A stretch of DNA of 32,000 bases from Geobacter sulfurreducens PCA (GCF_000007985.2 NC_002939.5:3180001-3212000), one strand, 5' to 3'. Positions 2,571-29,936 are shown, counted from the stretch's first letter. Made by a program: numbers and translations. The notes: generated by a model not told the origin, from the sequence alone.

Positions 2571-2602
2571 GAGAGGTGGGGCGCCCTGCAGCCTCACCTC
2601 TC
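2571..2602 (-). terminator. Rho-independent terminator/attenuator-like hairpin after small ORF B
   Basis: Minus strand: GAGAGGTG-aGGC-tgcagggc-GCC-c-CACCTCTC followed by TTTGTTTGC. It begins 21 nt after the TAG of the 20-codon ORF. Confidence 0.6.
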
Positions 2603-2623
2603 CGTGCTCGGGCCGGCTGTCGA

Positions 2624-14134: not shown

Positions 14135-14218
14135 GACGACCCTCCGCCTCTTTCCGCAGGAGTACCCGACAACTGACAATTCTTGCAGCCCCTTAACGGC
14201 CCGCTGTCGCCTTATCAC

Positions 14219-14528: not shown

Positions 14529-15599
14529 TCAGGCGGTACGGGCCCGCCAGAAAAGGCAGGCGGCGAGAACAGCGGCGAATCCCGCCAGAAGGGCGGCCTT
14601 GCCGGCAAGGGAAACGCCGGCTGCCGTGGCGGCAATGCCCCACGACTGGACCAGGGCGCCGCCGATGAGCATCCCCACCACCACGAGCCCCGCATCGGCG
14701 TCCCCCTCGCCCGCCTTGATGAGCTGGCGGAAGGGGCAGCCGCCGATGAGGACGGAAATCCACCCCACGAGCCCCATGCCGAGGAAGCTCCAGAGGTGCT
14801 CCGGATGGGCGCCGGGCTGGCCGTGGAGACCGGGGTTGAATCTGCCGAAGGCTACGTTGGCGGCCACCGCCGCAGCCAGAAAGGCCACCACACCCCAGAG
14901 GGCCGGGGTCCGTCTGCCCATGATGAACGCATCACGGATGCTGCCGGTTATGCAGAAGCGGCTCCGCTGGGCCATGGCGCCGAGCAGCGCGCCGGCGCCC
15001 AGGGCAAGGGGAACGGGAGCGTGCTGTGCCGCGCTCCCCTGGCCGGAAAAGATGATGAAACCGGGGCGAACGAGAAGAAAGACCAGGAGCAGGAGAAAGA
15101 AGGCCGGGATCAGCGGGCCGCCGTGACCAACGCCCGGTGACGGGTGCCCCGGCTCCACCCCGTTGGCGAGCCCCCGGAGACCGGCCCAGACCCCGGCGAC
15201 CAGCCCCACGACGCCGGCAACGGCGGTCAGGTCGCCGGCAGCCAGGCGCAGGAAGAGCTTGATGGGGCAGCCGATGAAGATGGCACAGCCGACAATGAGG
15301 AACACTCCCGCAACGAGGCGCGGCAGGGGGGCGCCCCCGCCGCGGGAGCGGAACTCGCGAAAGAGCAGTGCGCTGGCCGCGGCGCCGAGCACGAAGCCGA
15401 TCAGTTCAGGCCGCAGGTACTGCATGCGGGGGTTGTCGTGCATCCCCAGGGCCCCGGCGCTGTTCTCCATGAAGCAGGAAACGCAGATTCCCGAGTTCTC
15501 CGGATTACCCCAGACCGCCAGAAGCGCACCGAGGCCGCCGAGGAAAAGCCCCGCCGCCACCACCATCCAGAAATGCCGATCCCGCAGCACTACTCGCAC
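14529..15599 (-). CDS. YedE/YeeE-family membrane protein (putative sulfur/selenium compound transporter)
   Basis: Polytopic and Gly/Ala/Leu-rich. Family-typical motifs GNPENSGICVSCF, RSRFCITGSIRD and GGCPFRQL. The ORF-track start at 15599 is GTG. A GTG at 15590 (TAGTG overlap with the upstream stop, GGGAGG 9 nt upstream) and an ATG at 15566 are alternatives. Confidence 0.75.
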   Translation of the reverse strand: MRVVLRDRHFWMVVAAGLFLGGLGALLAVWGNPENSGICVSCFMENSAGALGMHDNPRMQYLRPELIGFVLGAAASALLFREFRSRGGGAPLPRLVAGVFLIVGCAIFIGCPIKLFLRLAAGDLTAVAGVVGLVAGVWAGLRGLANGVEPGHPSPGVGHGGPLIPAFFLLLLVFLLVRPGFIIFSGQGSAAQHAPVPLALGAGALLGAMAQRSRFCITGSIRDAFIMGRRTPALWGVVAFLAAAVAANVAFGRFNPGLHGQPGAHPEHLWSFLGMGLVGWISVLIGGCPFRQLIKAGEGDADAGLVVVGMLIGGALVQSWGIAATAAGVSLAGKAALLAGFAAVLAACLFWRARTA

Positions 15600-16129
15600 C
15601 CTCCCGCCAGCCGACTCTTCAGGTAGTTGACCTTGCGCAGGGACGCCGCCAGGCTCCGGTTGCCAGGGTTGGCGGCTGCCCGGCCGCCGATGCCCGCCAG
15701 CCCCTCGACCACCAGGCCCTCGATGGCGCGGCGCCGTGACAGGGGGCTCTGTGCGTCCACGTAATCGCCATTGAGCCTGACCCCTTCCTCAAAGGAAGCC
15801 ACGGCCTCGTCCAGTGCCCCCATCTTCCGGAGGATCTCCCCCCTGAGGATGTAGCCGTGGGCCTCGCCGGGGTAGCTTCGGATCAGCTCGTTCAGCCTCA
15901 GGAGGGCTTCCTGGTCGTTGCCGGCCGTGCGCAACTCCTCCACCGGCCCATAGAGCCTGGCGATCAGCTCGACGCGGGCGCGATAGGCCATCTCACGCTC
16001 CACGGCCTTGCCGAGGCCCGCGGCCCTGCCTGCTCCTGCCCCGTGATTCGTTGCAAGAACACCGGCCAGAGCCGCAATGACGACGGCCAGGAGCAGCCAG
16101 GTTATTTTGTCGAAGGTGTCGGTGAACAT
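15590..16129 (-). CDS. Membrane-anchored TPR-repeat protein (179 aa from ATG at 16129)
   Basis: Met36 of the 214-aa ORF gives MFTDTFDKITWLLLAVVIAALAGVLA as a TM anchor. TPR-like helices follow (DQEALLRLNELIRSYPGEAHGYILRGEILRKMGALDEAVASFEEGVRLNGDY). The start lies 22 nt after the upstream stop. Confidence 0.6.
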   Translation of the reverse strand: MFTDTFDKITWLLLAVVIAALAGVLATNHGAGAGRAAGLGKAVEREMAYRARVELIARLYGPVEELRTAGNDQEALLRLNELIRSYPGEAHGYILRGEILRKMGALDEAVASFEEGVRLNGDYVDAQSPLSRRRAIEGLVVEGLAGIGGRAAANPGNRSLAASLRKVNYLKSRLAGGCE

Positions 16130-16151
16130 TGGAAAAACCAGCCTTTTCAGG

Positions 16152-17057
16152 TCAGTACGTCTGATATGGCGGCATATTGACACGCTTCGCCATTTCACGG
16201 ATAAGGTCGTAATCGCTGTCCAGCAGATCTTCATAGCCGTCGATCCAGGCGGCCTTCAGCACCTTGAGCCGCTCCCCGTCCACCTCGGCGGTGTCGCCGG
16301 GCTTCAGGGCCAGGAGGGCGTCCTTCACCTTCTTCACCAGGGCCGGATCGGTTCCCTTGGCCACGGCAAAGGTGCAGTAGGGGATCGGCTTGCTCTGGGC
16401 GAGGATGACGAAGTCGTCCGCCGAGATCTTTCCTTCCTGTGCCATGGTTTCCAGGTCGAGGACCGGCGCGGCGGCCACGTCATACTTGCCGTGCAGGACG
16501 CCGTAGATGAGTTTTTCGTGCTTGAAGGAGCCCGAGGGGATGGAATAGGTCCCCAGGTCGTGCTCCGGGTTGATGCCGGCCGAGAGCATCAGGTCGTACT
16601 CGGCCAGGTAGCCGGTGGGAGCCAGCATGGGGCCGAAGGCCAGCCTCTTCCCCCGGATGTGGTCGAGTGTTTCGATGCCGCTCCCCTTGCGGGCGATGAG
16701 GGCGCCCGCGGAACGGGAGCCGAAGGTGCCGCGCTTTTCCGATGCCACCAGCTCGACGCCGTGGTTCTCCCGCAGGATGACGTAGATCAGGGAGTTGGTG
16801 TGGGTAAAGGTGAACTCGCCGGACTTGAACCGTTTCTCGAAATCGTGGGTATCCACCGGCACCGCCACGAAGTCGACCCCGCACCTGTCGGACAGATAGC
16901 GGGTGAGTGGGAGGAAGCGGGACATGGTCTCCTGCTCGTTGTTGCAGAGCATGTAGCCGATCTTCACCACGGGCCGGGCCCCCTCGGGCTTGCAGCCGGC
17001 AAGGAAGGCGGCAAAGAGGGCCAGCATGAAACATCGCGTCAGGGTCGAAAAATTCAT
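16152..17057 (-). CDS. PhnD-like (phosphonate-binding fold) periplasmic substrate-binding lipoprotein, 301 aa
   Basis: Start at Met66 of the 366-aa ORF (ATG at 17057), giving MNFSTLTRCFMLALFAAFLAGC with a LAGC lipobox. The body resembles the PhnD/phosphonate-bd family (VKIGYM...FTHTNSLIYV...GKRLAFG...TGYL...GKYDVAA). Confidence 0.75.
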   Translation of the reverse strand: MNFSTLTRCFMLALFAAFLAGCKPEGARPVVKIGYMLCNNEQETMSRFLPLTRYLSDRCGVDFVAVPVDTHDFEKRFKSGEFTFTHTNSLIYVILRENHGVELVASEKRGTFGSRSAGALIARKGSGIETLDHIRGKRLAFGPMLAPTGYLAEYDLMLSAGINPEHDLGTYSIPSGSFKHEKLIYGVLHGKYDVAAAPVLDLETMAQEGKISADDFVILAQSKPIPYCTFAVAKGTDPALVKKVKDALLALKPGDTAEVDGERLKVLKAAWIDGYEDLLDSDYDLIREMAKRVNMPPYQTY

Positions 17058-17094
17058 TACATGGAGTCCTGTCGTTGTCCGGGCGGTTAACCCG

Positions 17095-17964
17095 CTACCA
17101 GCACGAGGGGTCTTCACCCTCAAGGGATTGATGCATGACGTATGCCCTGCCGCGGCATCCCCCCCGGCATTCCGCCAGCTCGCCGCAGGCACCGCAGGCG
17201 CGGGGATGCTCCAGGAGCCGGCGCCGGAGGGCCTTTTTCGCTTCCGAGGCAATGAGCTCCTGCAGGGGCATCTCGCCCGCGGTGCCGAGCCTCACCGGCA
17301 GGGTGGGACAGGGATAGACACCGCCGTCGGGGGCGATGGCGATCATGGTGTTGGCCGCCTGGCATCCCCCCTGGGGAAAGGGTACGCCGGGGTTGAAGGC
17401 CCGCCAGAGGAACGGATCGTGAATGGTCAGGGCAAGGCGCTGGGCGCCGCCTTCGGCGTCCAGGGCGTTCGCCAGCTCCCGCTGTTCGTTCATGGTGAGG
17501 AAGAACGGGGGCTCGCCTCCGTACAGGCGTTGCATGGGGAGGACGAGCCGGGTGATCCCCCGGTCGAGACAGTAATGCACAAGGGTCGGGAGTTCGCGCC
17601 AGTTCCCGTGGGTCACCGCATAGGATACGCCGGCGGACGGCTCGTCCTGCCACTCCCCGGAGTCGAGCAGATCGGCATGGTCCACGTCAAGGAGCAGCTC
17701 CCGCACCGCCCCGTGGGCAACAAGGGCCCGGACGGTATCGTCATGGGCCTGCGGGGGGATCGTGAGGGTAACGGCGGCCGGGCCGCCCCGGAACCGCTCC
17801 AGCACTTCGCCGAGCCAGCCGGGAGAGGTTGGCGCGGTGCTCGTTACATTCAGCATGAGGGGCCGGCAGTCGATGATCCCGGCGGCGATCGCCAGCAGGA
17901 GCGACGGATCGGCCGCGGTAGCGGGGAGATCCCAGTAGATGGTTATGGGAGACGAAAGTTCCAT
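17095..17964 (-). CDS. SPASM-domain protein lacking the radical SAM CxxxCxxC motif (GeoRSP-like SPASM protein)
   Basis: The C-terminus has the full SPASM signature: CQAANTMIAIAPDGGVYPC (C-x12-G-x4-C), CGACGELAECRGGC (CxxCx5Cx3C) and a final DPSCW. The N-terminus ITIYWDLPATAAD aligns with LTINWAINNTCNFACRHC of the neighbouring radical SAM enzyme but has no Cys triad. Confidence 0.8.
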   Translation of the reverse strand: MELSSPITIYWDLPATAADPSLLLAIAAGIIDCRPLMLNVTSTAPTSPGWLGEVLERFRGGPAAVTLTIPPQAHDDTVRALVAHGAVRELLLDVDHADLLDSGEWQDEPSAGVSYAVTHGNWRELPTLVHYCLDRGITRLVLPMQRLYGGEPPFFLTMNEQRELANALDAEGGAQRLALTIHDPFLWRAFNPGVPFPQGGCQAANTMIAIAPDGGVYPCPTLPVRLGTAGEMPLQELIASEAKKALRRRLLEHPRACGACGELAECRGGCRGRAYVMHQSLEGEDPSCW

Positions 17965-17968
17965 AGAA

Positions 17969-19090
17969 TCATGCCCAGCAGTGGGGGTCGGGACTGTTAA
18001 GGTCGCCGGTGAGGGCCAGGGCCCGGGCGGAGCAGCCGCCGAGGCAGTCCTCGTACGCGCTGCAGCCGGCGCACTTGCCGGTGGGCTTCTTGGTACGCAG
18101 CGCCGCCAGTACTGCCGAGTCCCGCCAGACCTGCTTCAGGTCGTCCCGCACGATGTTGCCGATGACAACGGGAATGAAGCCGCAGGGGGTCATGTCGCCG
18201 TTGGTCTTGATGTTCAGGGAGAGCTTGCCGCAGACGCTACCCTTCACGAGGCTCCCCGCATCGCGGGCTCCCAGGAGGGCGATGATCGGGTCGTCCAGGG
18301 AGACGTCGAGCCCCGACTCCCGCTCCCTGGCGGCCAGGGCGCCCCGGTAGAACTCCCGCCACTCGGCGGGCGAAAGGTCCAGTTCATCCCTGTGGGACAG
18401 ACCCAGCCCCGAGCACTTGAAATTGTGGAAGTTGAGCTGTCCCACCCCCTGCTCCCGGGCAAAGGTCACCAGATCGTCGATGGCCGTGTGATTGATCCGG
18501 CAGATCACCGTGGAGATAGAGGTGGCGATGCCCGCCCCGGCCAGATGCCGCAGGGCAGCCACGGCCCGGCCGTGGCTGCCGTCAACGCCGCGGAACCGGT
18601 CGTGGACCCGGGGGAGGTGGCTGTCGATGCTGATACCCACCCTGGTGAACCCGGCGTCCCGCAGGGCCGCCGCCGTGTCCCGGTCAATGAGCCAGCCGTT
18701 GCTGTTCAGGGAAATCCGCAATCCCGACCCGCTGGCGTGCCGGGCGATCTCCAGCAGCCCCGGGTGCAGGAGGGGTTCCCCGCCGCCGAAATTGACGGAA
18801 AAGACCCCGGCAGCGGCCGCCTTTCCCAGGCATGCCAGAAGGACGTCCCGGGGGAGTTCCTCGTGGGTGTCCCCCCGGCTGTAGCAGTGGCGGCAGGCGA
18901 AGTTGCAGGTGTTGTTGATGGCCCAGTTGATGGTGAGGGGCGCTTCCAGTGACGGCGCGTCCGCTCGGCTGGCAGCGGTGGCCTCATCGCCGGCTCCCCG
19001 GCGTATCGCCGGATGCGCCTGCGTTGCCTCCCCTGTGCCGCCGCGCTCGCCACGCGAACTCACCGTCGCGGTTTCCCTGTCATTCTGCAT
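17969..19090 (-). CDS. Radical SAM/SPASM-domain peptide-modifying enzyme (GeoRSP-like), 373 aa
   Basis: CNFACRHC radical SAM cluster motif, GGGEPLL SAM-binding motif and a SPASM signature (CGKLSLNIKTNGDMTPC; CAGCSAYEDCLGGC; DPHCWA). Start set at the ATG at 19090 (Met86 of the 458-aa ORF), overlapping the PqqD stop by 11 nt. The first ~55 aa are low complexity, so the true start may be further in. Confidence 0.9.
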   Translation of the reverse strand: MQNDRETATVSSRGERGGTGEATQAHPAIRRGAGDEATAASRADAPSLEAPLTINWAINNTCNFACRHCYSRGDTHEELPRDVLLACLGKAAAAGVFSVNFGGGEPLLHPGLLEIARHASGSGLRISLNSNGWLIDRDTAAALRDAGFTRVGISIDSHLPRVHDRFRGVDGSHGRAVAALRHLAGAGIATSISTVICRINHTAIDDLVTFAREQGVGQLNFHNFKCSGLGLSHRDELDLSPAEWREFYRGALAARERESGLDVSLDDPIIALLGARDAGSLVKGSVCGKLSLNIKTNGDMTPCGFIPVVIGNIVRDDLKQVWRDSAVLAALRTKKPTGKCAGCSAYEDCLGGCSARALALTGDLNSPDPHCWA

Positions 19091-19394
19091 AGCGGATAAA
19101 TCCCTTGACGGCCAGTTCGTCCAGGAATGCCTGGACATCTTCCCGCAGCACCGCCTCGTCCACCTCGAACTGGGGGAGCAGCTCCGCCACGATGCCCTCC
19201 GGGGTCCGGCCGTCACAGAGCTTCCAGATTTCAGTGCCGAGATAGTTGAGGGAGAGCATGGTCCCACCGGAGAACAGGACCGAGGTGCCGGTCTCCTCCA
19301 CCGCCTCGCCCCGGTCCAGGGCCTCCAGGACCCGGGCCAGGGCATCGGCCTCCTCGCGCCACATGACGTCGGGGTTGCGATGAATCGTCTTCAC
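19080..19394 (-). CDS. PqqD-family peptide chaperone (RiPP recognition element)
   Basis: Typical PqqD-family pattern: HRNPDVMWREE...LNYLGTEIWKLCDGRTPEGIVAELLPQFEVDEAVLREDVQAFLDELAVKGFI. I prefer the GTG at 19394 (AAGGAAGG SD 8 nt upstream). The ORF-track start, a GTG at 19418, is the alternative. Confidence 0.8.
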   Translation of the reverse strand: MKTIHRNPDVMWREEADALARVLEALDRGEAVEETGTSVLFSGGTMLSLNYLGTEIWKLCDGRTPEGIVAELLPQFEVDEAVLREDVQAFLDELAVKGFIRYAE

Positions 19395-19438
19395 GTTTCT
19401 TACCTTCCTTGCTCTCACAATCCGTTGTTGTGAATGCC

Positions 19439-19759
19439 CTAATCCCCCTGCGCCGTTATGGAGGCAATGACCAGATTCTCCTGGGAAGCGTTGCGGATGC
19501 CGTGGTCCTCGAACGCGGGAACGATCACGATCTGCCCCGTGGTGATGGACTGGGTCTTGCCGCCGGACTGGAACTGGCCGGTACCCTCCATGACCATCCA
19601 GATATGGCTGCCGTGGTGGGTGTGGGTCACGATCTCCTGGCCGGGCTTCATGCAGATGAGGCTCACCCGGGCGTGATCATCGGACCAGATGGTTTCCTGG
19701 TGACGTTTTTCATCGTTGAACGTTTTGAGGGTCTGGACGTCGAGCACCTGTGATTTCAT
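19439..19759 (-). CDS. Cupin-domain protein, 106 aa
   Basis: Cupin motif 1-like GQEIVTHTHHGSHIWMVMEG and motif 2-like GQIVIVPAFEDHGIRN. AGGAGG SD 5 nt before the ATG. Confidence 0.75.
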   Translation of the reverse strand: MKSQVLDVQTLKTFNDEKRHQETIWSDDHARVSLICMKPGQEIVTHTHHGSHIWMVMEGTGQFQSGGKTQSITTGQIVIVPAFEDHGIRNASQENLVIASITAQGD

Positions 19760-19818
19760 GCATTCCTCCTGAATGTGGTTGTGTCATCCCGGCTCATGGG
19801 GTACCCAAGGTACCCGCT

Positions 19819-21654
19819 TCAGGCCTTCCTGACAAGCTTCAGAACAGAGCCGAGCCACGCGGAGGCCCGGTTGAAGACGGATGAGGCGGTGGAAACCCGC
19901 ACCTCCCCGCCCGTGTCGGCGACACCGGAGAAGGTCACCCCGTAACGGGAAGCGAAGAGGTTGGCCCCGCGGAAATCCGCTGCGCCGGCTGACGGCAGCG
20001 GCACGACCAGGGCGGCGCCTCCCCGGGCGTTATGGTCCGCCAGGAGTTTCGCCTCGGCATCGCTGAGCCCGGCGGCGCCGTCATCGCCGCAGAAGAGCCA
20101 GACCTGGCCCCACTCCGCCAGCAGCCCTCCGGTGAGGCGCGGCACCTCGCGCCGGTCCACCGTCTTCACGGTGAAGCCCCGCGCCGCGAGTTCGGCCAAG
20201 ACCTTCTCCCCCAGCAGCACCGCGGCACCGCCGGCACCGTCCCCGAGGCGGCAGACGAGGATTCTGGTGGAGGCGGCCGAGAGGGAATTCTCTTCGAGCC
20301 AGTCGGCGATGTTGCCGATGTAGGCCCCGGTGTCGTAGCGGTCGGCCATGGCTGCGGTGAACCGTCCGTACGTCCCGTCGAACACGACCCCCCCCCGCCC
20401 GTCCACGGCATTGGTGTAGGTGGCGACGGTCCCCTTGCCGGCGGGGTCCATCACCATCCGCACGTTGGGATCGTGCTTCAGGACCACGGCGGATGTGCCG
20501 CCGGACAACGACGCGACCCCCCGCAGGAGAGGATTGCCCACATCCACGCCCGGCACGAACACCAGGAGCCGGAAGGCGTAAGCAATCAGGAGCGTCCCCG
20601 AAAGGCAGGCGAACATGTAGAGGAAGAAGACCCGCTTCTTGAAAAAGGTCCAGAAGAGCACCATGGTGGGCACCGCGGTCACCGGTCCGCCGATCATGAA
20701 CGCAAGGGCCGCCCCGGCGTCCATGGTCCCGCCCAGGGCTCCCTTGATATGGTAGACGATGCTGGACGCGCTGATCTGGTGCAGGAACATTGGTACCGAC
20801 GCCAGGGTCACCCAGACGATGTTCAGGGGATCCGTCCGGCCGAAGAAGCGGTAAATCCACTCCTTGGGCAGGTAGCGCTCCACCACCGCGCCGATGACCA
20901 CCCCCACGATGACGTACTTCCCCACCACCCAGACCATCTCCGCGGACTTGGCCAGGAAGATGAGGAACTTGTTGCCGGTCCTGACGGCGACCCGGTTGCC
21001 GAATTTCCGCCGGCAGTTGCACCGCAGCCGCTCGTCCGGGTAGTCCTCGTCGTGGAAATCGCCCCGCACGATCCCCCCTTCGACGAAGATCTCGTTCTTC
21101 CGGAAACCGGGCCGCTTGCTGAGGGCAAGGGTCACCAGCCCGGCGAAGATCCCCATGGAGAAGGCGGAGATGGTCCTGACCACGGTCCACTCGGGACCCA
21201 GGTCGTTCAGGGTAAGGAGATAGGTTGACGGGCTCAACAGCGGCGAGGTCACCATCAGGGCCATGACCGGCGCCAGGGGAATCCCCGCCACCAGGAGGCT
21301 GATGGCGGTGGTCACCGTGCCGCAGGCGCACAGGGGGGTGATGATCCCCACGAAGGACGCGAGAAAGACGCTCAGGGCCCCGTACTTTCTGAGGGATGCC
21401 TGGAGTTTCACGGCAACCTTGAAGGTCCGGAGGTAGCCGGCAATGAGAATGCCCACGATGAAATAGGGCAGCACGTCACGGAGCTCGGCCATTACCCCGT
21501 GGTCGCTGAAAAACAGGTCCCAGAGCTCGCTGCCGAGCAGCACGGGGAACGAAACCGGCGCGGCATCGGAGGAGACCAGGTGCCCGCCGGTGCCCGTGCC
21601 CCACACGTGCCAGACCACTAGGGACAACGAGATCAGAACCATGACGATCAGCAT
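19819..21654 (-). CDS. Predicted permease (DUF318/ArsP-type, PLCACG motif) fused to a ~230-aa C-terminal soluble domain of unknown function
   Basis: Multiple TM segments with ITPLCACGTVTTAISL, typical of the 'predicted permease' family. The C-terminal third (from about DPAGKGTVATYTN) is non-hydrophobic and matches nothing I recognise. Start at the ATG at 21654 (Met27); the GTG at 21732 is the alternative. Confidence 0.7.
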   Translation of the reverse strand: MLIVMVLISLSLVVWHVWGTGTGGHLVSSDAAPVSFPVLLGSELWDLFFSDHGVMAELRDVLPYFIVGILIAGYLRTFKVAVKLQASLRKYGALSVFLASFVGIITPLCACGTVTTAISLLVAGIPLAPVMALMVTSPLLSPSTYLLTLNDLGPEWTVVRTISAFSMGIFAGLVTLALSKRPGFRKNEIFVEGGIVRGDFHDEDYPDERLRCNCRRKFGNRVAVRTGNKFLIFLAKSAEMVWVVGKYVIVGVVIGAVVERYLPKEWIYRFFGRTDPLNIVWVTLASVPMFLHQISASSIVYHIKGALGGTMDAGAALAFMIGGPVTAVPTMVLFWTFFKKRVFFLYMFACLSGTLLIAYAFRLLVFVPGVDVGNPLLRGVASLSGGTSAVVLKHDPNVRMVMDPAGKGTVATYTNAVDGRGGVVFDGTYGRFTAAMADRYDTGAYIGNIADWLEENSLSAASTRILVCRLGDGAGGAAVLLGEKVLAELAARGFTVKTVDRREVPRLTGGLLAEWGQVWLFCGDDGAAGLSDAEAKLLADHNARGGAALVVPLPSAGAADFRGANLFASRYGVTFSGVADTGGEVRVSTASSVFNRASAWLGSVLKLVRKA

Positions 21655-21772
21655 CCGGTTCCCCGACTCAGCCTGGTGTCCGTGGACCTCGCAGGCCTCC
21701 CTCGGTTTTGCCCTGAACGGATTCACGAGCACGATACCCTGCCCGTGCCGGCTGTTCCGATGCCGGAGATAT

Positions 21773-22681
21773 TCATTGTTTCCTCCTCAACCGCCTGGCG
21801 CACGCCAGTACCGCACCGAGCCCCACCATGGCGAACCCGGCGAAAACACACGGCCTCCCCGGGTCCCTGACCACCTGAATACCAGCAAAAGACATGCCCA
21901 TCGCATCCGTACCGACCTGGGTGTTGTAGAAATAGAGGCCGTTCCAGATGAAGGGGGCGTTCACCTCGGCCGTACCCTCCGCTATGGCAACGCCATCGCG
22001 GCTCAAGGCCAGGTCGACCCAGAGCCGCTTCAGGACCGGATTTTGAAACGCCACCAGCCTGAAGTCGTAGGGGAACTCGGCGGGGAGGCTGCGTTCTCCC
22101 GAGGTATCGCAGGTGCCGACGAGCTGCCCGTTGCGAAAAACCGAGAGCCTGAGGACCTCCGAGGGAAACTGGAGGGAATCCGCCGTCACGCGATAGGGCC
22201 CCGCCGTGAAGCTGTCACCGGTCTTCAGAGTGTGGAGCGCCTCCTTCGCGCTGCCCCTGAGGACCCCCACCCTGACCGGAATCGGGTAAAACTCCCGATT
22301 GATCCGCGTGACCGTCAGGTCGGCACCGAGGGGAGCGTCCCGCTCCAGGTCCCACCGGTAGGCCTGGTCAACAGAGGTTCCCTCGTAGACGTTGACGGTC
22401 GCCACGTGGCCGAACGTCCGGGCCGCAACGCCCCCGCAGATTACCAGCACGCCCAGATGCAGAATCAGCACCGGCACCGAAAGGGACCGGAACCGGCGCA
22501 GCGTGCAGCAGACGAGATTCAGCGCCACTCCCGCCAGCAGGCAGAGAAACGCCGGATGGGCGTAGAGAGCCCTGGTCCCGGCGAACGTGCCGGGGATCGC
22601 CGCCACGGCAACGATCAGGAACAGGGCCACCGCCAGTTCCATGGAAGCCAGGAACCGGCCTATCCGTTTCAGTAGAGTCAC
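21773..22681 (-). CDS. ResB/Ccs1-like cytochrome c biogenesis (System II) protein, short form, 302 aa
   Basis: The N-terminus RIGRFLASMELAVALFLIVAVAAIPGT matches the conserved ResB start (..S.KLA..L......SI.GT). Two N-terminal TMs, a periplasmic beta-rich middle and a C-terminal TM. No CcsA/ResC (WWD) partner is present in the window. Confidence 0.7.
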   Translation of the reverse strand: MTLLKRIGRFLASMELAVALFLIVAVAAIPGTFAGTRALYAHPAFLCLLAGVALNLVCCTLRRFRSLSVPVLILHLGVLVICGGVAARTFGHVATVNVYEGTSVDQAYRWDLERDAPLGADLTVTRINREFYPIPVRVGVLRGSAKEALHTLKTGDSFTAGPYRVTADSLQFPSEVLRLSVFRNGQLVGTCDTSGERSLPAEFPYDFRLVAFQNPVLKRLWVDLALSRDGVAIAEGTAEVNAPFIWNGLYFYNTQVGTDAMGMSFAGIQVVRDPGRPCVFAGFAMVGLGAVLACARRLRRKQ

Positions 22682-22700: not shown

Positions 22701-23258
22701 TCAGATCAGTTTTTTCGACTTCAGGAAGTCTCTGACCGCTTTTCTGGACTTGTCGCCGGCGTCCGCCGACTTCAGCAGCCGGGCGTAGGCGTCGTTGGTG
22801 AGCACCCCGGAGAGCTTGGCCAGCAGCTTGGGCAGGGCCGGGTAGTTGTTCAGAGTTTCCACCGTCAGGACGGGAGCATACGAGGGCGTGCCGCCGAAGG
22901 GCTCAAGCCAGGCAAGGTTCAGGGTTGAACGATAGCCGCTCTTGATCGCCTCCCGTGCCGCCCCGTCACCCGCCTTCGGTTTACCCAGCACCTCCAGCGC
23001 GCGCTCGGGGGTTTCCACGAGCAGGTTGACGTCGCCCTTTTTCACGGCACCGTAGAGCTCCCGGCTGTCCCGGTAGACCTGGACCTTCACCGCGGTGCCG
23101 GTCCGCTCGGTGATGAGCAGGGACATCATTTCCGCCAGCAATCTCTCCTGGGGCGTGTTGGGAACGCCGATGTGGAGGGTCCTGCCGACACAGGCCCCTG
23201 CCAGGTGCGCACCCACGAGAACCGAAACCGCAACAATGCAGCAAATAAGCTTTTTCAT
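22701..23258 (-). CDS. Small secreted/lipoprotein-like substrate-binding-domain protein (OpuAC/glycine-betaine-binding-like), 185 aa
   Basis: Signal peptide MKKLICCIVAVSVLVGAHLAGAC. LHIGVPNTPQERLLAEMMSLLITERTG...LYGAVKKGDVNLLVE resembles the N-terminal lobe of OpuAC-type binding proteins. Assignment is tentative. Confidence 0.4.
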   Translation of the reverse strand: MKKLICCIVAVSVLVGAHLAGACVGRTLHIGVPNTPQERLLAEMMSLLITERTGTAVKVQVYRDSRELYGAVKKGDVNLLVETPERALEVLGKPKAGDGAAREAIKSGYRSTLNLAWLEPFGGTPSYAPVLTVETLNNYPALPKLLAKLSGVLTNDAYARLLKSADAGDKSRKAVRDFLKSKKLI

Positions 23259-23330: not shown

Positions 23331-24020
23331 TCAGTCTGGCCCCAGCCCCACGTCCAGGGCACTATCCGCTGTGCCCGGGGAAGGTACGAATTCCGCCGAG
23401 GCGCGCCATGTGGACGGCGGAAACCGCCTGGAGCTCCCCACGTACTGCTTGTGGCCCGCGGGGACGATGAGGGTGTATCGGCCGTCCGCCCCCGTCCAGG
23501 CCGAGATGTAGTCGGGCATGCGGCTGTTGTCGCTGGTGGCCGACGCAAACACAAAGGCATTGGCCACCGGGTTCCCGTCGCCGTCCAGAACCCGTCCCGC
23601 CAGCTTCACGAAATCTGCGACCAAGGGCCGGCGCATGCGCCCCAGGTCCCGGATATCGGCTACCGTAAAGTCCTGCTCGATCTCGGCATCCGCGGTCAGG
23701 TCCATGACGGCCGGTTCCCCCGAGTGCTTGTCGCCCGGCATGAGCGGACCGTATGATTCGTCCAGCTTGAGCCGCGCCACCACCCAGTAGGTTCCCGGCG
23801 GCACCCTGACGGCCGTGGTGCCGTCCCCGGCCGACGGCGGTGAGATGAAGGTTGCGGGCCGCCGGACATGGGCCGAGTCATAGACAAAGAGCTTCACCCC
23901 TGCCATGGGCTTGCCGTCCACGTCCGTCACCCGGCCCCTGAGGACCGCCGCATCCGCAGCGCCGGCCAGGAAGCCGGTGAGCGCCAGCCAGAGTGTCGCC
24001 CGGAGCGCCGCTCCCCTCAT
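23331..24020 (-). CDS. Secreted protein with two carboxypeptidase-regulatory-like (CarboxypepD_reg) beta-sandwich domains, 229 aa
   Basis: Signal peptide, then two copies of the (L)xGRVxDxDGxPxAxxxVF... pattern (LRGRVTDVDGKPMAGVKLFVY; LAGRVLDGDGNPVANAFVFA). The start overlaps the upstream stop as ATGA (24017-24020). Confidence 0.55.
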   Translation of the reverse strand: MRGAALRATLWLALTGFLAGAADAAVLRGRVTDVDGKPMAGVKLFVYDSAHVRRPATFISPPSAGDGTTAVRVPPGTYWVVARLKLDESYGPLMPGDKHSGEPAVMDLTADAEIEQDFTVADIRDLGRMRRPLVADFVKLAGRVLDGDGNPVANAFVFASATSDNSRMPDYISAWTGADGRYTLIVPAGHKQYVGSSRRFPPSTWRASAEFVPSPGTADSALDVGLGPD

Positions 24021-26518
24021 GGCGTCCCTCCGTTTGCCGGCCCAACCGGGCCCGGCTTGTCCAGCCAGGGCTCGTAGAGGACCATGCCGATGCCCGGCTC
24101 CTGGCGGCCGTCAAAGATCGTCCCGCCCGGATCCCCCTCGCCCCACCAGTTGCCCCGGGCGTTCACGTCCTGGTCGTTGAAATCGCCGATCCGCATGTTG
24201 TAGCCGCTGTTGCCCACGAGACTGTTGCCCGTCACCGTCAGCCCGCCCCCCTTCTCCCGCACGAAGATCCCCGTTTCATTCGCCGTGATCAGGTTCTCCG
24301 CGATGAGGGCGTTGCCGATGTACGAGCGGATGCCGATGGTGTTGTCCCGAAAGATCGAGCGGCGGATCCGGACCGGGCCGCTTCTGAAGCGCATGCCGCC
24401 GTAATTGTGCCGAATCAGGCAATCGGTGACGGCGAGATCCGTGAAATGACTGTGAATGCCCCAGGTGGCGTACTCGACGATGCAGTTGGAGATGACGCTT
24501 CCCGTGGCGTATTCCAGCAGGATTTCGTTCCAGTCGGAGGGCCCTTTGCGGTCGACTGAGGTGAACCGGATCGTGCCGTCCCGTTGTCCCGATGCAAGGA
24601 GCTTGCCCTTGATCTCAAGGCCGGTGCCGGCGGCGAACTGCACCGTTGTTCCCGGGGCAACGGTCAGGGCCGCGCCGGGGAGTACCGTCGTGGGGACGGC
24701 CACGGTGATGACGCCGCGCCAGACCGTATCGGCGGCCACGGTCGCCAGCGGCCAGACAAAGGGGGTGGGAGCGGCCCCCGGCCGGCCGTAATCGACACGC
24801 CCCAGCCGCGGATCGTCCCGCTGGTCGTTGATCACCAGGGCCGGGTCCCGTCCCCCCCACCAGTTGCCGGGGGCGGAAACATCGCCGCTACCGTCCAGAT
24901 CGATGGCATAGAGACCGTTCCCGGCGAAATTGTTGCCGCTGATGATCCCGGCAAAGGACAGGATTCCCATCCCCCGTTCGCCGTTGTCGGCAATCAGGTT
25001 CCCCGTGATCAGGGAGCCGGAATCCTGGATGTTGAAGCCGCTCAGGCCGTTGGCCGTCACCGCGTTGCCTGCGAACTCGACAGAGTCGACGTTTTTCAGG
25101 GAGATGCCCGTTTCGGCGTTGCCGGAGATGCTGTTGCGGTTGACCTCGCCGTGGTAGAGATCGGCCGCCATGAGGCCGAACCGGTTGCCGTCGAACAGGT
25201 TCTCCCTGACCGTTACCGCTCCTTCGCGCAGGCGGAGCCCTTCCCTGCCGTTGGCCACGATCCTGTTCCCGCGGACCGTGAGGGTGGTGCGGAAGAAATT
25301 CCCTCCCACCTGGTTGCCGCAGAGCAGGTTGTCCACCAGTTCAACCTCAGAATCGCGCCCCTGAACCCCGCTCTTATTGCCGCAAAGGGTGTTGCCGTGC
25401 AAGGCCACCACCGACTCCTGGAACTGGATGCCGCGGTAATTGTTCGTGAGGGTGGTGTTGTGGATCGCCACCGTGGAGAAGTGGAAGTGAAGTCCCCGGT
25501 AGGCGTGCTCAATCCGGCAGTGTTCCACCAGGTTCTGGCCTGCCGAGCTGTTCATGATGTTGACGGCATCCCAGTCGCCCATGCGCCGGTCCTTTTCGGC
25601 GGAACGGAAGGTGATGGGCCGGTCGGGAGTCCCCTTGGCCAAAAGGCGCCCCTGGATCATGATCCCGTTTTCGCCGATGCCGTCGCCGTTGGTGTCCCGC
25701 CGGGTAAACTCGACGATCGTTCCCGGCAGGATGACCAGGCGGCTCCCCTCCGGCACCCTCACCGTGCCGTCCACCAGGATTCTCCCCTGCCACAGGGTCT
25801 CGCCCAGCAGGACCATGTCCTGGTACCGGCGGCTGACCGGCGCCTCCTCGTTGACCGGCGGCCCCTTCGGCAGGGTGTGGGGCCGGACCGCTGCCGTGTG
25901 GGCGTCTTTCTTCCGGTTGCGGGCCACCTCGGTGGCATGGGCGGTCACCCGGGCACCCTGAAGGGATAGGACGCCGTAATCGTTCTCGATGATCCTCGCC
26001 CCCTCCACCGTGATCCGCGACGCTGCCCCCTGCGCCACCAGGCCGTACCGGTTTTCCCGAAGCGTCGACGAGGAGAGATGCAGCGTCCCCTCCGCCACGG
26101 AGATCCCGCTGTCGGCGTCGGCGACCAGGCATTCCCTGATGGCGGCGGTGCCGCCGTCGATGAGGATTCCCGCCCAGCTTCCCGCCCTCTTCTCCTGGCC
26201 GGAAAACCGGACCGGAGCCGTCACGGTGCCCTCAACCGCCAGCCTCCCCCGGATGGTTATCTCCGTGAGGGGCGAGAGATATTCGGGGTCGGTCTTGGTG
26301 CTTTCCGCGGCCGCGACCGTGACGACGGTGCCGGCCCGGACGGTCAGGGTGACCCCCTCGGGCACGACGACGTCTTCCGTGACCGTGACGTTCCCCTGCC
26401 AGACCGTATCGGACGTTATCACCCCGGCGATCGCGCCGGCGGGGAGGCCGAACAGCAGGGCGGACAGCAGCGTCAGGGAAAGGGCGGCGATTCTGGCGAG
26501 CGACATGGGTTCGAGCAT
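24017..26518 (-). CDS. Secreted right-handed parallel beta-helix repeat protein (NosD/CASH-like), 833 aa, three internal modules
   Basis: Signal peptide (LTLLSALLFGLPAGAIAG). Many PbH1-type repeats (N.I..N...GI.......I..N). The cap motif DTVW.G.(I/V)TV....V.PG..LTV.(P/A)GT.V.(F/V) occurs three times. Confidence 0.8.
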   Translation of the reverse strand: MLEPMSLARIAALSLTLLSALLFGLPAGAIAGVITSDTVWQGNVTVTEDVVVPEGVTLTVRAGTVVTVAAAESTKTDPEYLSPLTEITIRGRLAVEGTVTAPVRFSGQEKRAGSWAGILIDGGTAAIRECLVADADSGISVAEGTLHLSSSTLRENRYGLVAQGAASRITVEGARIIENDYGVLSLQGARVTAHATEVARNRKKDAHTAAVRPHTLPKGPPVNEEAPVSRRYQDMVLLGETLWQGRILVDGTVRVPEGSRLVILPGTIVEFTRRDTNGDGIGENGIMIQGRLLAKGTPDRPITFRSAEKDRRMGDWDAVNIMNSSAGQNLVEHCRIEHAYRGLHFHFSTVAIHNTTLTNNYRGIQFQESVVALHGNTLCGNKSGVQGRDSEVELVDNLLCGNQVGGNFFRTTLTVRGNRIVANGREGLRLREGAVTVRENLFDGNRFGLMAADLYHGEVNRNSISGNAETGISLKNVDSVEFAGNAVTANGLSGFNIQDSGSLITGNLIADNGERGMGILSFAGIISGNNFAGNGLYAIDLDGSGDVSAPGNWWGGRDPALVINDQRDDPRLGRVDYGRPGAAPTPFVWPLATVAADTVWRGVITVAVPTTVLPGAALTVAPGTTVQFAAGTGLEIKGKLLASGQRDGTIRFTSVDRKGPSDWNEILLEYATGSVISNCIVEYATWGIHSHFTDLAVTDCLIRHNYGGMRFRSGPVRIRRSIFRDNTIGIRSYIGNALIAENLITANETGIFVREKGGGLTVTGNSLVGNSGYNMRIGDFNDQDVNARGNWWGEGDPGGTIFDGRQEPGIGMVLYEPWLDKPGPVGPANGGTP

Positions 26519-26533: not shown

Positions 26534-26571
26534 AAAAGAGGTGCCGACGAATACGGTTCGGCACCTCTTTT
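26534..26571 (-). terminator. Strong rho-independent terminator/attenuator hairpin after small ORF A
   Basis: Perfect 14-bp stem AAAAGAGGTGCCGA / TCGGCACCTCTTTT (26534-26547 pairs with 26558-26571) and a 10-nt loop. On the minus strand it is followed by GCTTTTTGTG. It starts 19 nt after the TGA of ORF A and ends 15 nt before the ATG of the beta-helix gene. Confidence 0.75.
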
Positions 26572-26590: not shown

Positions 26591-26653
26591 TCAGCAGGGA
26601 TGAACCACTGCGCTCCCGACAACCCTCGGACGAATATAGCTTTTTTTCTTCAC
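26591..26653 (-). CDS. Small ORF A, 20 aa: MKKKSYIRPRVVGSAVVHPC (GTG start; hidden as the tail of the 91-aa track ORF)
   Basis: AAGGAGGA (26661-26668) lies 7 nt upstream of GTG AAG AAA AAA AGC TAT ATT CGT CCG AGG GTT GTC GGG AGC GCA GTG GTT CAT CCC TGC TGA. A paralog with the same length and the same start and stop positions lies at 2624-2686. Followed by a perfect hairpin. Confidence 0.7.
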   Translation of the reverse strand: MKKKSYIRPRVVGSAVVHPC

Positions 26654-26795
26654 CTGATTTTCCTCCTTTGTTTCCGTGCGTACCGCACTCTGTGCATCTG
26701 CCGGGAACGACCTTCCGGCCGATGCCCTTATCGTTCCGGTGCCGGGCTCGCAGCCGCCGATGATTTCGCCGGCTGCCCTGCTCCGGTCTCGCCTG

Positions 26796-29700
26796 CTACT
26801 TGTCGTCGGACCAGCGCGGCGTCGGCTGGAAGTGGCAACTGACGTTCCAGCAACTGCCGGTGGCATCCGGGGACTGCTTCGAGTACCACTGTCCCTTATC
26901 AGCGTTGAACTTGTACGTCGGATCGATCTTCACGTTCACTGCCGACTTCTTCTGCTGGGTGCTGCCGCCGGCCCAGACCGACTCGTCGCCCACGTGGGCC
27001 GCGGCACCGTCGTAGTGGCAGGTGAGGCATGGGGTGAAGCCCTGGGACGGCCGCAGGTTCGACATGAGGTGACCCAGCTTCACGTGGGCGCCGCCGCCGC
27101 CCGAGTAGTTCTCGAGACGTGCCGTCGAGTAGTTGGCCTGGCTGGCAACGAAGCCCTTGGGTGTCGGCGGGTAGCCGTGACACTCGTCGCAAGCCTTAGG
27201 CTTGAAGGCAAACGTGTTGCGGTGGGAGTGGCAGTTCAGGCAGCCGGTTGTGGGGTGGCCGGATCCTTCGTTGACGCCGCGCCGATAATGGCTCGTTTTG
27301 GTGTGGCAGGTCTGGCATACGCCGCGGTACGGAGCCTGTAGCTGCACGAGATCGGCCGTGGTGGCATAGCTGATGGTGGAGGTCAGTGCCCCGAAAACAA
27401 GGGTGGTCCGGACCATGGCCCGGTTGCCGGTGCCGTGGACGTCATGGCAGGTCTTGCACTCCATGGTGTAGTTGCCCAGGTCCACGGCATGGCGGGTCAC
27501 GTTGCGCCTGGTGGCGGTGGGGACCTTGATGGCGTCATTGTGGCAGCCTGCGCAGAGGGTGTAGTCGTTCACGGCGATCCGCTTCTGGTCGCCCGAAGTG
27601 CCGTTGATGTGCCCGCTGTCGGCATCGTGACAGCTTGCGCACTGGCGGCTGGCGTTGAAGCCGGCCCCGGCCTGGCCGTGGCCGCTGGCGGTGAAATTCG
27701 TTTTTGCCGGTGCGGTCTTGCCGCCGATGACCGAGAGGAGCCCCGTGTGACAACTTTCGCAGGTCACGCGGCCCGAGGTCCAGGTGGCGCCGTTCTTGTG
27801 GCAACTGGACGTACAGTTGGCCGAAACCACCTGGACGGAGCCGTTCACGTGGGTGATCGCCGTTGAGGTCGTGTAGGTGTGGCAGCTCTGGCAGGCGGAT
27901 ACCGTTGCCCCCAGGATGGCCTTGGGACCATAGCCGAGGGTCAGGTGGGCCGCGTGGCCGTTGGTCCCGATGGTCTGGGCGCTCGTGGCGGCGATGGTGG
28001 GGGTGGCGTAGTGGCACTTACCGCACGCGCCGGTCGTCGGATCGACCCACTGGGGAGTCGTCACCGGCGCGCCGCCGCGGCCGTCGCCGTGGCATCCGGC
28101 AACGCTGCAGGTCGCCGTGTTCACATTGTAGGTACCGCTGCCGACGTTGATGGTTCCCCGGGCGACGCCGTTGAAGACGACGGTTTTCACGCCATCCACG
28201 TGGACCGATTTGTCCTTGATGGTGGAGGGGCCGCTGAGCGTCGCGTAGTGGCAGTTCTGGCAGTTCATGATCCCTGCGTTGAAGTGGGCCGGGTGGGCGT
28301 TGGTCAGGGGAAATGCCGCGTGGCACGAACTGCAGCCCGACAGCTTGCCCACGCCGTTGCCCCACGTGAACGTCGTATTGCCCGGCGCGCCGACCACGGC
28401 CTGCAGCGAAGCGTTGCGGGGAGCGCCGTCCGAGTGGCAGTAGGTCGCCGTACAGGTGCCGTTGCCGGCCGGGTTGTAGGTGGGGTTGGCGCCGGAGCCG
28501 ATACTGGCGATGATGCCGGTCTTGTCGACGAACACATCCTGGAACGTGCCGGTATTGTGACTGAAGCCCTTGTGGCACTGGTCGCACGCTATGCTGTAGT
28601 TGGCACCGCCGCCGGCATGCCGGGCGTGGGGGGTCTGGGTTTCGTTCTTGAACACACCGGAGGTTGAATAGTCACGAACGCCGTCCTTGCCGTAGCCCGA
28701 AGGCCCGCCGGCCGTGTTGACGGTGGGGGGGAAGCCGTGGCACTGGGTACAGTTGGCCGAAAAGCCCTGGGAGTGGGTGTGGCAGCTCCGGCAGTCGGCT
28801 GCGTTGGTGCTCGAGTGCTGCCCGATGGTTCCCGGCAGGGGCGAGTGGCAGGCCAGGCAGACGCCGAAGGCATCCTTGTTCCAGTTTTTCCGGGTAACCG
28901 AGGTGTACTGGTACATGACCTTGGCGTTGCGGACCGCTCCGTACTGGGTGGAGATGTTCATGTACCGGTTGATGAGATAGGCGTTGGGGGCGGTCCCGTC
29001 AGCCTCGTCCACGTGGCCGCCGTGGCAGTCGGCGCACTGGACGTTCTGGTTCTTGGTGCCGTTGTGGTTCTTGACGCGGGCAGTGGTGTTTGCCGGGTCG
29101 TCGGCCGACTTGTGGCAGTTGGTGCAGATGTTGGGATCGCTGACGGTCCTTCCCTTCAGGTCCGTGCGCAGCAGCATGCCCCGGGACGTGGAAAGGAGCC
29201 CCATCCGGGCGCTTGATGCATTGTCGAAGGTGCGGCTGTTGGAGTCGGTGTAGTGCACCCCGTGACAGGTGGTGCAGACGACCGCGCCGCTGCGCGACAT
29301 CCTCATGGCCGATGTGGGGTTGGCCGGGTTGCTGTTGCGCGGCGGGCTGTAGAATTCGTCGGGCCGGGCCGCGGCCTTGGTCGAGTAGTTCACCGTGACG
29401 GGGTGGGATCCCCTGGTGTGGTCAACGGTCTTGCGGGGCCGGTGGCAGTCGAGGCAGAGCTGGTCCTCGTCGTTGCGCACCCGGAGGAACGGTTTCGAGT
29501 TGTAGGCCGATGAATAGAGGTCGTGGATGTTGTGGCAGCGGGCGCAGGACACGGTTCCGATGAGGAGCGACTTGGTGAGCCTGACGTCCGTGGGAGCCAC
29601 CGCGCCCGCCTTGGGCACCACGTCCTTGCCGATCCAGTTGTGGGAGGTCTGGTACGTCACCGCCGGCCGGGCACTCGTCCAGGTGCGGAAGGGGTTGGCG

Positions 29701-29936
29701 AAGTCGGTCATGGCAAAGGGCTTGCCTGAGCCGTAGGGATCGCTCGGGTTGTGGCAGGTGAGGCAGACGTTGTTGTACCCCGTGGAACCGAGGGTGCTGT
29801 GAACGGTATGGCAGGAGGAACACTTGTAGCCCTTGACGCTGCCGAGTTCGTGGGGATAGTCGATGGCCCACGCGGCGATCGGGACGAAGAGCGTCACTAA
29901 TGCCGTGACGAAAGTCCTCTGTAGTATTCCGTTCAT
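26796..29936 (-). CDS. Multihaem c-type cytochrome, 1046 aa (23 CxxCH + 4 Cx3-4CH)
   Basis: Signal peptide MNGILQRTFVTALVTLFVPIAAWA. Haem motifs counted by hand, including CTATYCHSDG, CSVAGCHGDG and CWNVSCH. GGGAG SD before the ATG at 29936. Confidence 0.93.
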   Translation of the reverse strand: MNGILQRTFVTALVTLFVPIAAWAIDYPHELGSVKGYKCSSCHTVHSTLGSTGYNNVCLTCHNPSDPYGSGKPFAMTDFANPFRTWTSARPAVTYQTSHNWIGKDVVPKAGAVAPTDVRLTKSLLIGTVSCARCHNIHDLYSSAYNSKPFLRVRNDEDQLCLDCHRPRKTVDHTRGSHPVTVNYSTKAAARPDEFYSPPRNSNPANPTSAMRMSRSGAVVCTTCHGVHYTDSNSRTFDNASSARMGLLSTSRGMLLRTDLKGRTVSDPNICTNCHKSADDPANTTARVKNHNGTKNQNVQCADCHGGHVDEADGTAPNAYLINRYMNISTQYGAVRNAKVMYQYTSVTRKNWNKDAFGVCLACHSPLPGTIGQHSSTNAADCRSCHTHSQGFSANCTQCHGFPPTVNTAGGPSGYGKDGVRDYSTSGVFKNETQTPHARHAGGGANYSIACDQCHKGFSHNTGTFQDVFVDKTGIIASIGSGANPTYNPAGNGTCTATYCHSDGAPRNASLQAVVGAPGNTTFTWGNGVGKLSGCSSCHAAFPLTNAHPAHFNAGIMNCQNCHYATLSGPSTIKDKSVHVDGVKTVVFNGVARGTINVGSGTYNVNTATCSVAGCHGDGRGGAPVTTPQWVDPTTGACGKCHYATPTIAATSAQTIGTNGHAAHLTLGYGPKAILGATVSACQSCHTYTTSTAITHVNGSVQVVSANCTSSCHKNGATWTSGRVTCESCHTGLLSVIGGKTAPAKTNFTASGHGQAGAGFNASRQCASCHDADSGHINGTSGDQKRIAVNDYTLCAGCHNDAIKVPTATRRNVTRHAVDLGNYTMECKTCHDVHGTGNRAMVRTTLVFGALTSTISYATTADLVQLQAPYRGVCQTCHTKTSHYRRGVNEGSGHPTTGCLNCHSHRNTFAFKPKACDECHGYPPTPKGFVASQANYSTARLENYSGGGGAHVKLGHLMSNLRPSQGFTPCLTCHYDGAAAHVGDESVWAGGSTQQKKSAVNVKIDPTYKFNADKGQWYSKQSPDATGSCWNVSCHFQPTPRWSDDK

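Follow-up and report, generated by a model that had tools for sequence, protein, structure and literature searches.

A conserved 20-codon gene family as the probable source of the precursor peptide of the GeoRSP radical SAM/SPASM-PqqD system in Geobacter sulfurreducens

Very short genes are easily overlooked beside the large operons that they may serve. One such example is found in Geobacter sulfurreducens PCA, where the stretch NC_002939.5:3180001-3212000 (32,000 nucleotides (nt), referred to here as the window) contains two copies of a gene for a peptide of 20 amino acids (aa), GSU3618 (copy 1) and GSU2897 (copy 2). Judged from sequence comparison, these genes most probably encode the precursor peptide of GeoRSP, a radical S-adenosylmethionine (SAM)/SPASM-PqqD system encoded between them, and the peptide would be linked in function to giant multihaem cytochromes. 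Three curated NCBIfam models represent GeoRSP, which consists of a PqqD-family peptide chaperone, a radical SAM/SPASM enzyme and a SPASM-only partner; neither NCBIfam nor the literature that could be searched defines a substrate for the three. NCBIfam labels its PqqD protein a "peptide chaperone", yet none of its models matches the peptide. The family described here therefore provides a concrete and synthesisable candidate.

The 20-codon open reading frame (ORF) is a genuine, widely conserved micro-gene under purifying selection. Homologues were collected from two samples, the first consisting of 80 loci gathered via the radical SAM gene of the window and searched in six frames for the peptide, and the second of 80 further loci from a metagenome scan with the peptide alignment. 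The loci span 10-kb flanks only; the cytochrome-linked copy of the window lies about 12 kb beyond the YedE gene and would be out of reach of such a flank. The six-frame search gave 22 copies in 19 of the 80 genome loci plus the window, and the total amounts to 103 copies (89 unique DNA sequences) from Geobacteraceae and Nitrospirota loci and metagenomes. All copies are 19-20 aa long and have the C-terminus V-H-P-C, with the stop codon directly after this motif in 103 of 103 occurrences, and no form fused to or embedded in a larger protein was present among them. The unique copies mostly start with ATG (82/89) and are mostly preceded by a Shine-Dalgarno-like sequence (84/89). Residues M1, Y6, P9, V17, P19 and C20 are invariant, position 11 is always V or I, and K2, V12, G13, A15 and H18 are nearly invariant. 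Position 16 is variable (V, N or D), and paralogues, of which there may be two or more per locus, differ mainly there.

The pattern of substitution is that of a translated sequence. Entropy at the three codon positions is 0.46, 0.49 and 1.41, the value at the third position being three times that at the first and second, and the ratio of non-synonymous to synonymous variation (pN/pS) is 0.29 in frame versus 1.46 and 1.48 in the shifted frames. The pN/pS result is borne out by the genome-derived copies and by codons 2-11, both of which fall outside the metagenome search pattern and were thus not selected by it. A preliminary description, made from the sequence of the window alone, had proposed copy 1 as a small coding gene and had left the conservation of its frame, length and C-terminal His-Pro-Cys to comparison with related genomes; all three features were found conserved, and the 103 homologous copies with their frame-specific selection establish the gene as real.

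The strongest evidence that the GeoRSP PqqD protein may bind this peptide, drawn from homology, is the combination of a leader motif in the peptide with matching residues in the protein. Among proteins of solved structure, the best relatives of GeoRSP PqqD are TbiB1 (E = 3e-5), LppB and PbaB1. These are discrete recognition elements (RREs) for peptides that are made on ribosomes and modified after translation (RiPPs), and they bind leaders that contain [Y/W]xxPx[L/V/I/F/A], with YxxP being essential for binding (PMC13381572). In LppB, N33 fixes the proline kink, D70 hydrogen-bonds the tyrosine, and F74 divides two hydrophobic pockets (PMC13381572). The invariant Y6-x-x-P9-x-[V/I]11 of the peptide family is this RRE-bound leader motif, and in a HMMER alignment N58, D94 and F98 of GeoRSP PqqD correspond to N33, D70 and F74 of LppB. 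None of the three residues varies in any of the 78 GeoRSP PqqD homologues, whose overall identity is no more than 44-88%. It is proposed that residues 1-13 form the leader and residues 14-20 (S-A-V-V-H-P-C) the core.

The arrangement of the genes is consistent with such an interaction. On one strand, a block of 12 genes that runs from a NosD-like gene to YedE keeps its gene content in 80 loci, which come from two phyla and represent Geobacteraceae and Nitrospirota/Thermodesulfovibrionia, and copy 1 is the first gene of this same-strand cluster in the window, 7.2 kb upstream of PqqD. The peptide gene stands directly upstream of the NosD-like gene in the window, in at least 11 genome loci (L002, L003, L007, L008, L010, L013, L015, L021, L031, L034 and L038) and in at least eight metagenome loci (L081, L083, L122, L131, L132, L134, L140 and L145). 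In L016, L027, L032, L044, L046 and L049 it has another place near the cluster, on one strand or the other. Both G. sulfurreducens copies are within 16 kb of the radical SAM gene, and both peptide types flank GeoRSP on two metagenome contigs, as they do in the window. A search inside the GeoRSP core for another conserved small ORF that might be an alternative precursor found none, and a search of the peptide-less loci for leader-like mini-ORFs was equally negative. The earlier comparison of the peptide, by size class, with RiPP or cofactor precursors such as PqqA and MftA has gained support from the PqqD-family chaperone and radical SAM/SPASM pair 7 kb downstream, the YxxPx[V/I] leader motif, and the predicted motif-binding residues kept in the chaperone.

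The proposed mechanism begins with the leader (residues 1-13), whose Y6-x-x-P9-x-[V/I]11 would dock as a beta-strand into the PqqD protein via Asn58, Asp94 and Phe98. Docking would present the C-terminal S-A-x-V-H-P-C to the radical SAM enzyme, which would abstract a hydrogen atom and modify the invariant V17/H18/P19/C20 region. Beyond its own family, this enzyme is closest to the AhbD, NirJ2 and MftC models, and its nearest solved structures are PqqE, the decarboxylase BlsE and SkfB. By analogy, the preferred chemistry would be an MftC-like oxidative decarboxylation of the terminal cysteine with ring closure, which is favoured because the cysteine is strictly C-terminal and because the nearest characterised relatives (AhbD/NirJ, MftC and BlsE) are oxidative decarboxylases. 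Close alternatives, likewise drawn by analogy, would be a thioether from Cys20 to residue 16 or 17, or a three-residue cross-link between His18 and Cys20. Owing to the hairpin after the ORF, precursor transcript would be made in excess, and only limited transcription would continue into the enzyme genes. The ArsP-type permease would probably export the product, for use alongside the giant multihaem cytochromes and the periplasmic NosD-like and CarboxypepD_reg proteins; many peptide copies would be co-transcribed with the cytochrome genes.

A more specific version of this scheme is speculative and carries a low probability. It holds that GeoRSP could turn the peptide into a new cofactor or prosthetic group, peptide-derived in the sense of pyrroloquinoline quinone or mycofactocin, and that this compound would be exported to serve the NosD-like periplasmic machinery and the giant CxxxxCH multihaem cytochromes of metal-respiring Geobacteraceae and Thermodesulfovibrionia. 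Such a cofactor might carry sulfur or selenium, as the YedE gene hints, or might be haem-linked. The latter idea derives from the kinship of the radical SAM enzyme to AhbD/NirJ, from the ResB-like gene of the cluster, and from a pair of ResB and CcsA-type genes beside the cluster of locus L161.

Copy 1 is followed by a GC-rich hairpin (Table 1) whose T-rich tail reaches to about 10 nt of the NosD-like start codon. Its perfect 14-bp stem, reported in the preliminary description, was confirmed (26571..26558 paired with 26547..26534); the predicted energy is -31.4 kcal/mol (z = -5.8), and 0 of 200 shuffled sequences fold as well. A simple terminator scanner did not call the structure, its rule being a loop of 3-8 nt and the loop here measuring 10 nt. 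Its appearance is that of an intrinsic terminator, probably a leaky one. In 69 of 88 family members the gene is followed by a comparable hairpin and T-run, with a median stem of 14 bp and a median start 17 nt past the stop codon (interquartile range 13-21); the stem sequences differ and are not conserved, and the spacing is variable. Leaky terminators after precursor genes are common in many RiPP operons, and the hairpin that follows the peptide family resembles them.

The stop codons of the 89 unique copies are TGA in 61, TAA in 25 and TAG in 3, and TGA is used in 20 of the 22 genome-derived copies. TAG is rare in comparison with the long ORFs of the same loci, where it makes up 23% of stops (naive binomial p ~3e-7, the copies not being independent), and nearly all stops of the family are readable by release factor 2 (RF2).

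Several observations weigh against an assignment of the peptide to GeoRSP. The precursor gene lies 7 kb from the enzyme genes and is not adjacent to them, and no peptidase is evident in the cluster from Pfam and NCBIfam scans. In about 17 Geobacteraceae GeoRSP loci whose flanks are intact, the peptide is missing for 10 kb on either side; these loci include a clade with apparent crcB/DUF190-type genes before NosD and a locus of the Geotalea uraniireducens type. About 30 copies are situated directly 3' of giant multihaem cytochrome genes (16-48 haems) with a gap of 40-100 nt, and many long metagenome loci contain no GeoRSP gene within 10 kb of the peptide. Other copies have ankyrin proteins or CarboxypepD_reg-like proteins of about 270 aa as neighbours. 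By position, the association of the peptide with the cytochrome/CarboxypepD_reg module is no weaker than that with the GeoRSP core. The absence of GeoRSP near cytochrome-linked copies is partly an effect of range, because such a copy lies about 12 kb beyond YedE in the window and a 10-kb flank is too short to show linkage even where it is real.

These positions are the basis of an alternative in which the peptide is a small protein that acts without GeoRSP, in partnership with the giant multihaem cytochromes and the CarboxypepD_reg-like proteins. Its role could be that of an escort or assembly factor in the cytoplasm, or of a mini-protein that binds metal or haem via His18 and Cys20; proximity to GeoRSP would then reflect a shared cytochrome island, and the GeoRSP chaperone would have another substrate. 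Besides the copies that follow cytochrome genes, this account draws on the clustering of neighbours into cytochrome, CarboxypepD_reg/NosD-like and ankyrin families, on long loci such as L092 and L147 with no modifying enzyme nearby, and on the GeoRSP clade that lacks adjacent cytochromes and also lacks the peptide within 10 kb. It is nevertheless considered rather unlikely. The peptide has neither a signal peptide nor a transmembrane segment, and an unmodified, unexported 20-mer cannot meet cytochromes that are periplasmic or extracellular. In addition, the invariant YxxPx[V/I] and the matching invariant Asn, Asp and Phe in the RRE of the cluster would have to be a coincidence, and the GeoRSP core offers no other candidate substrate.

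A cis-regulatory role was also considered, in which the ORF is a leader or arrest peptide of the TnaC type and its translation or termination controls the hairpin and downstream read-through. Such a role would suit a short ORF with a strong Shine-Dalgarno sequence, an ending Pro-Cys-stop, stops that are nearly all RF2-readable, and a terminator-like hairpin just upstream of the next gene. It is improbable, since the hairpins start at a distance estimated to be beyond the terminating ribosome, with spacing that is not fixed, and since the whole peptide, including the RRE-type leader motif, is conserved, not just a C-terminal arrest segment. Paralogues that differ mainly at core position 16 are typical of precursor families, some copies precede unrelated genes or no same-strand gene at all, and Rfam shows no leader or riboswitch.

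The presence of YedE in the cluster prompted a further reading, in which selenocysteine is read at the TGA that follows Cys20, with the hairpin as a selenocysteine insertion sequence (SECIS), giving a longer Cys-Sec selenopeptide. The predominance of TGA in the genome-derived copies, the hairpin 15-25 nt downstream, the conservation of YedE (TIGR04112) as a cluster member, and the existence in Geobacter of a known selenocysteine-containing RiPP, SbtM (PMC9204691), all pointed in this direction. The reading was rejected and is almost certainly wrong: TAA or TAG stands in 28 of the 89 unique copies (25 and 3, respectively), including copy 2 of the window, which is judged to refute it already. 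Moreover, the sequences that in-frame read-through would add are unrelated, with lengths of 0 to more than 30 aa; T-runs follow the hairpins, whose loops have no motif in common; and no Rfam SECIS match was obtained at the gathering threshold or at E <= 1. Assignment of the peptide to GeoRSP remains the preferred interpretation.

The features of the window are collected in Table 1; all credible genes are on the minus strand. The elements first described for copy 1 (Shine-Dalgarno sequence, GTG start, 20 codons and TGA stop) agree in every detail with the sequence, as does the 27-haem cytochrome gene upstream. The ORF was described as unlisted. This is correct for the mechanical ORF list, where copy 1 appears as the tail of a 91-aa ORF (26591..26866) and nowhere else; the curated G. 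sulfurreducens annotation, by contrast, does contain it as the hypothetical protein GSU3618. Its exact 20-aa sequence is present in GenBank (ADN78401.1/AFP20510.1, "hypothetical protein GSU3618 / KN400_3512", Geobacter sulfurreducens) and also in UniProt. While copy 1 was reported, its paralogue in the same window was missed. The exact 20-aa sequence of copy 2 is found in GenBank and UniProt as "hypothetical protein GSU2897" and occurs also in G. metallireducens; the gene begins 53 nt after a cytochrome gene and lies upstream of an ankyrin-repeat gene. The other eight peptide variants tested have no entry in the protein collection. The statement that the peptide belongs to no described family held in Pfam and NCBIfam searches with both window peptides, in which no model matched even at E <= 10.

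Table 1. Positions of the peptide genes, their signals and the surrounding genes in the 32,000-nt window
Feature	Coordinates	Strand	Remarks
Hairpin of copy 2	~2563..2603		With T-tail
Ankyrin-repeat gene	1447..2484		Downstream of copy 2
Peptide gene copy 2 (GSU2897)	2624..2686	-	ATG start; MKKRSYVKPRIVGSANVHPC; TAG stop
Giant CxxxxCH/CxxCH cytochrome	2739..11150	-	2803 aa; 34 haem motifs; directly upstream of copy 2
Giant CxxxxCH/CxxCH cytochrome	11195..14218	-	1007 aa
YedE-family putative selenium transporter	14529..15599	-	TIGR04112
TPR protein	15590..16234	-	
PhnD-like binding protein	16152..17252	-	Coordinates as listed
GeoRSP SPASM-domain partner	17095..17964	-	TIGR04304, 512 bits; lacks the CxxxCxxC radical SAM motif
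GeoRSP radical SAM/SPASM enzyme	17969..19090	-	TIGR04303, 668 bits
GeoRSP PqqD-family peptide chaperone (RRE)	19080..19418	-	TIGR04302, 173 bits
Small cupin	19439..19759	-	
ArsP-family permease	19819..21732	-	637 aa
ResB-like protein	21773..22681	-	
OpuAC-like protein	22701..23258	-	
CarboxypepD_reg protein	23331..24020	-	
NosD-like periplasmic beta-helix protein	24017..26518	-	833 aa; first large cluster gene, immediately downstream of copy 1
Hairpin of copy 1	26534..26571	-	14 bp, GC-rich; 10-nt loop; starts 19 nt after the stop of copy 1; T-rich tail
Peptide gene copy 1 (GSU3618)	26591..26653	-	GTG start at 26653..26651; 20 codons MKKKSYIRPRVVGSAVVHPC; TGA stop at 26593..26591
Shine-Dalgarno sequence of copy 1, AAGGAGGA	26661..26668	-	7 nt before GTG
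c-type cytochrome	26796..29936	-	1046 aa; 27 haem motifs; directly upstream of copy 1

The three GeoRSP models all score above their cut-offs in the window. The listed 458-aa ORF 17969..19345 is over-extended, its first 85 codons being an out-of-frame reading of the PqqD gene; the radical SAM gene itself begins with the ATG at 19090, which gives an 11-nt overlap with the end of PqqD. A simple promoter scan found no sigma-70 promoter, and Rfam gave no match for the full window, nor for the surroundings of the copy 1 ORF when the settings were permissive. Literature searches for GSU3618, for GSU2897, for Geobacter combined with PqqD and cytochrome, and for GeoRSP or TIGR04302-04 returned nothing; one G. 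sulfurreducens RNA-seq paper has GSU2887 and GSU2888 in its supplementary tables, with the peptide genes absent.

The conserved GeoRSP block, with about 12 genes, is far larger than the three curated families. In Geobacteraceae it comprises NosD-like, CarboxypepD_reg, OpuAC-like, ResB-like, ArsP, cupin, PqqD, radical SAM, SPASM, PhnD-like, TPR and YedE genes. In Nitrospirota the PhnD-like and YedE genes have moved and stand between the ResB-like and ArsP genes; a TPR gene was not detected in that block. Of the ArsP-family permease, no more than about residues 86-398 fall within the permease models of Pfam and NCBIfam; its long uncharacterised C-terminal domain is kept with the cluster.

Some loci depart from this plan. 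In L011, L014, L018-L020, L023 and L025-L029 an extra gene is inserted between the SPASM and PhnD-like genes (at about 11.9-12.5 kb); judged from its motifs, the product would be FmdE-like, with a CxxC...CxxC zinc ribbon at the C-terminus. Of these loci, L027 alone has the peptide within 10 kb, and six of them (L011, L018, L023, L025, L026 and L028) have the apparent crcB/DUF190-type genes before NosD. L027 (~18.6 kb, minus strand) and L086 and L087 (~8.3-10 kb) are near-identical loci in which a 504-aa ORF precedes the peptide gene, on the opposite strand to the GeoRSP cluster and 4.7 kb away from its YedE end; judged from its sequence, it looks like a B12-binding radical SAM protein. In L110, L153 and L157 the peptide gene follows giant haem-free ORFs (2082-2561 aa), not cytochromes, and the association may be with giant secreted proteins in general. 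In L161, the Geotalea uraniireducens-type locus, YedE is directly followed (14556..21035) by a full-length ResB of 466 aa, a CcsA-type cytochrome c assembly protein (PF01578) and a 1451-aa CxxxxCH cytochrome. The ResB and CcsA-type genes look like a dedicated haem-attachment pair next to GeoRSP, which hints that the island matures these unusual cytochromes.

The potential importance of the peptide lies in its setting. G. sulfurreducens is a model electroactive bacterium, in which the system lies in an island of 27- to 34-haem cytochromes, and anaerobes of two phyla that respire metals and sulfur have the system conserved. If the proposal is true, a peptide of 19-20 aa would be among the shortest RiPP-type precursors known. 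If the product is indeed a cofactor or ligand for the cytochromes, it would represent an unrecognised component of extracellular electron transfer.

Among known systems, pyrroloquinoline quinone (PQQ) biosynthesis offers a close parallel. PqqA is about 23 aa long, and PqqA/PqqD/PqqE likewise combine a very short ribosomal precursor with a PqqD-family chaperone and a radical SAM/SPASM enzyme, PqqE being the best solved relative of the GeoRSP enzyme. By analogy, the modified residues of both precursors would lie near the C-terminus, and the product could be a cofactor, as PQQ is, rather than an antibiotic. The peptide is nevertheless not a PqqA: it matches no PqqA model in NCBIfam or Pfam, ends in V-H-P-C, and contains no glutamate, so that the Glu-x3-Tyr pair is missing. 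Pfam and NCBIfam scans found no PqqB or PqqC in the cluster, which contains NosD-like, ArsP, YedE and cupin genes instead.

In mycofactocin biosynthesis, MftC oxidatively decarboxylates the C-terminal tyrosine of MftA and cross-links it to the penultimate valine. As in MftA, MftB and MftC, the last precursor residue of the present family is invariant (it is the site of chemistry in MftA), and an RRE protein is paired with a radical SAM/SPASM enzyme. The GeoRSP enzyme matches the MftC model over its full length with 161 bits, below the cut-off of 265 bits. Identity with MftA was rejected on this score and because the peptide ends in His-Pro-Cys, not Gly-Val-Tyr, and matches no family model. Cluster scans with Pfam and NCBIfam found no MftD, MftE or MftF, and GeoRSP differs further in its second, SPASM-only partner.

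The resemblance to lasso and LPP systems (TbiA/TbiB1, PbaA/PbaB1 and LppA/LppB) concerns recognition. The peptide carries their [Y/W]xxPx[L/V/I/F/A], the best PDB matches of GeoRSP PqqD are these RREs, and the Asn, Asp and Phe for the proline kink, the tyrosine hydroxyl and the division of the pockets are kept. A lasso peptide precursor was rejected despite the leader motif, as the cluster proteins contain no lasso cyclase (Asn-synthetase-like), B2 protease or kinase domain. Furthermore, the peptide has no Thr at position -2 and only about eight residues past the motif, and the modifying enzyme is a radical SAM protein.

Sactipeptide, ranthipeptide and SCIFF systems similarly join a cysteine-containing peptide to a radical SAM/SPASM maturase, and the solved relatives of the GeoRSP enzyme include SkfB and the "Radical SAM" chain of 5V1Q, which is presumably CteB. 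In contrast to those systems, the present peptide is far shorter and has a single, always C-terminal cysteine, the RRE is a separate protein, and a thioether is only a candidate product. The selenopeptide system SbtA/SbtM differs in that the peptide described here has neither a selenocysteine codon nor a SECIS, and the SbtM model gives 76 bits against a cut-off of 350; it shares with GeoRSP the bacterial group, a radical SAM/SPASM maturase and a link to selenium, here via YedE. As far as these comparisons indicate, RRE-dependent radical SAM peptide maturation in GeoRSP would be already known in kind, and what appears unusual is the shortness of the precursor and a cluster that brings together NosD-like, ArsP, YedE, cupin and SPASM-only partner genes.

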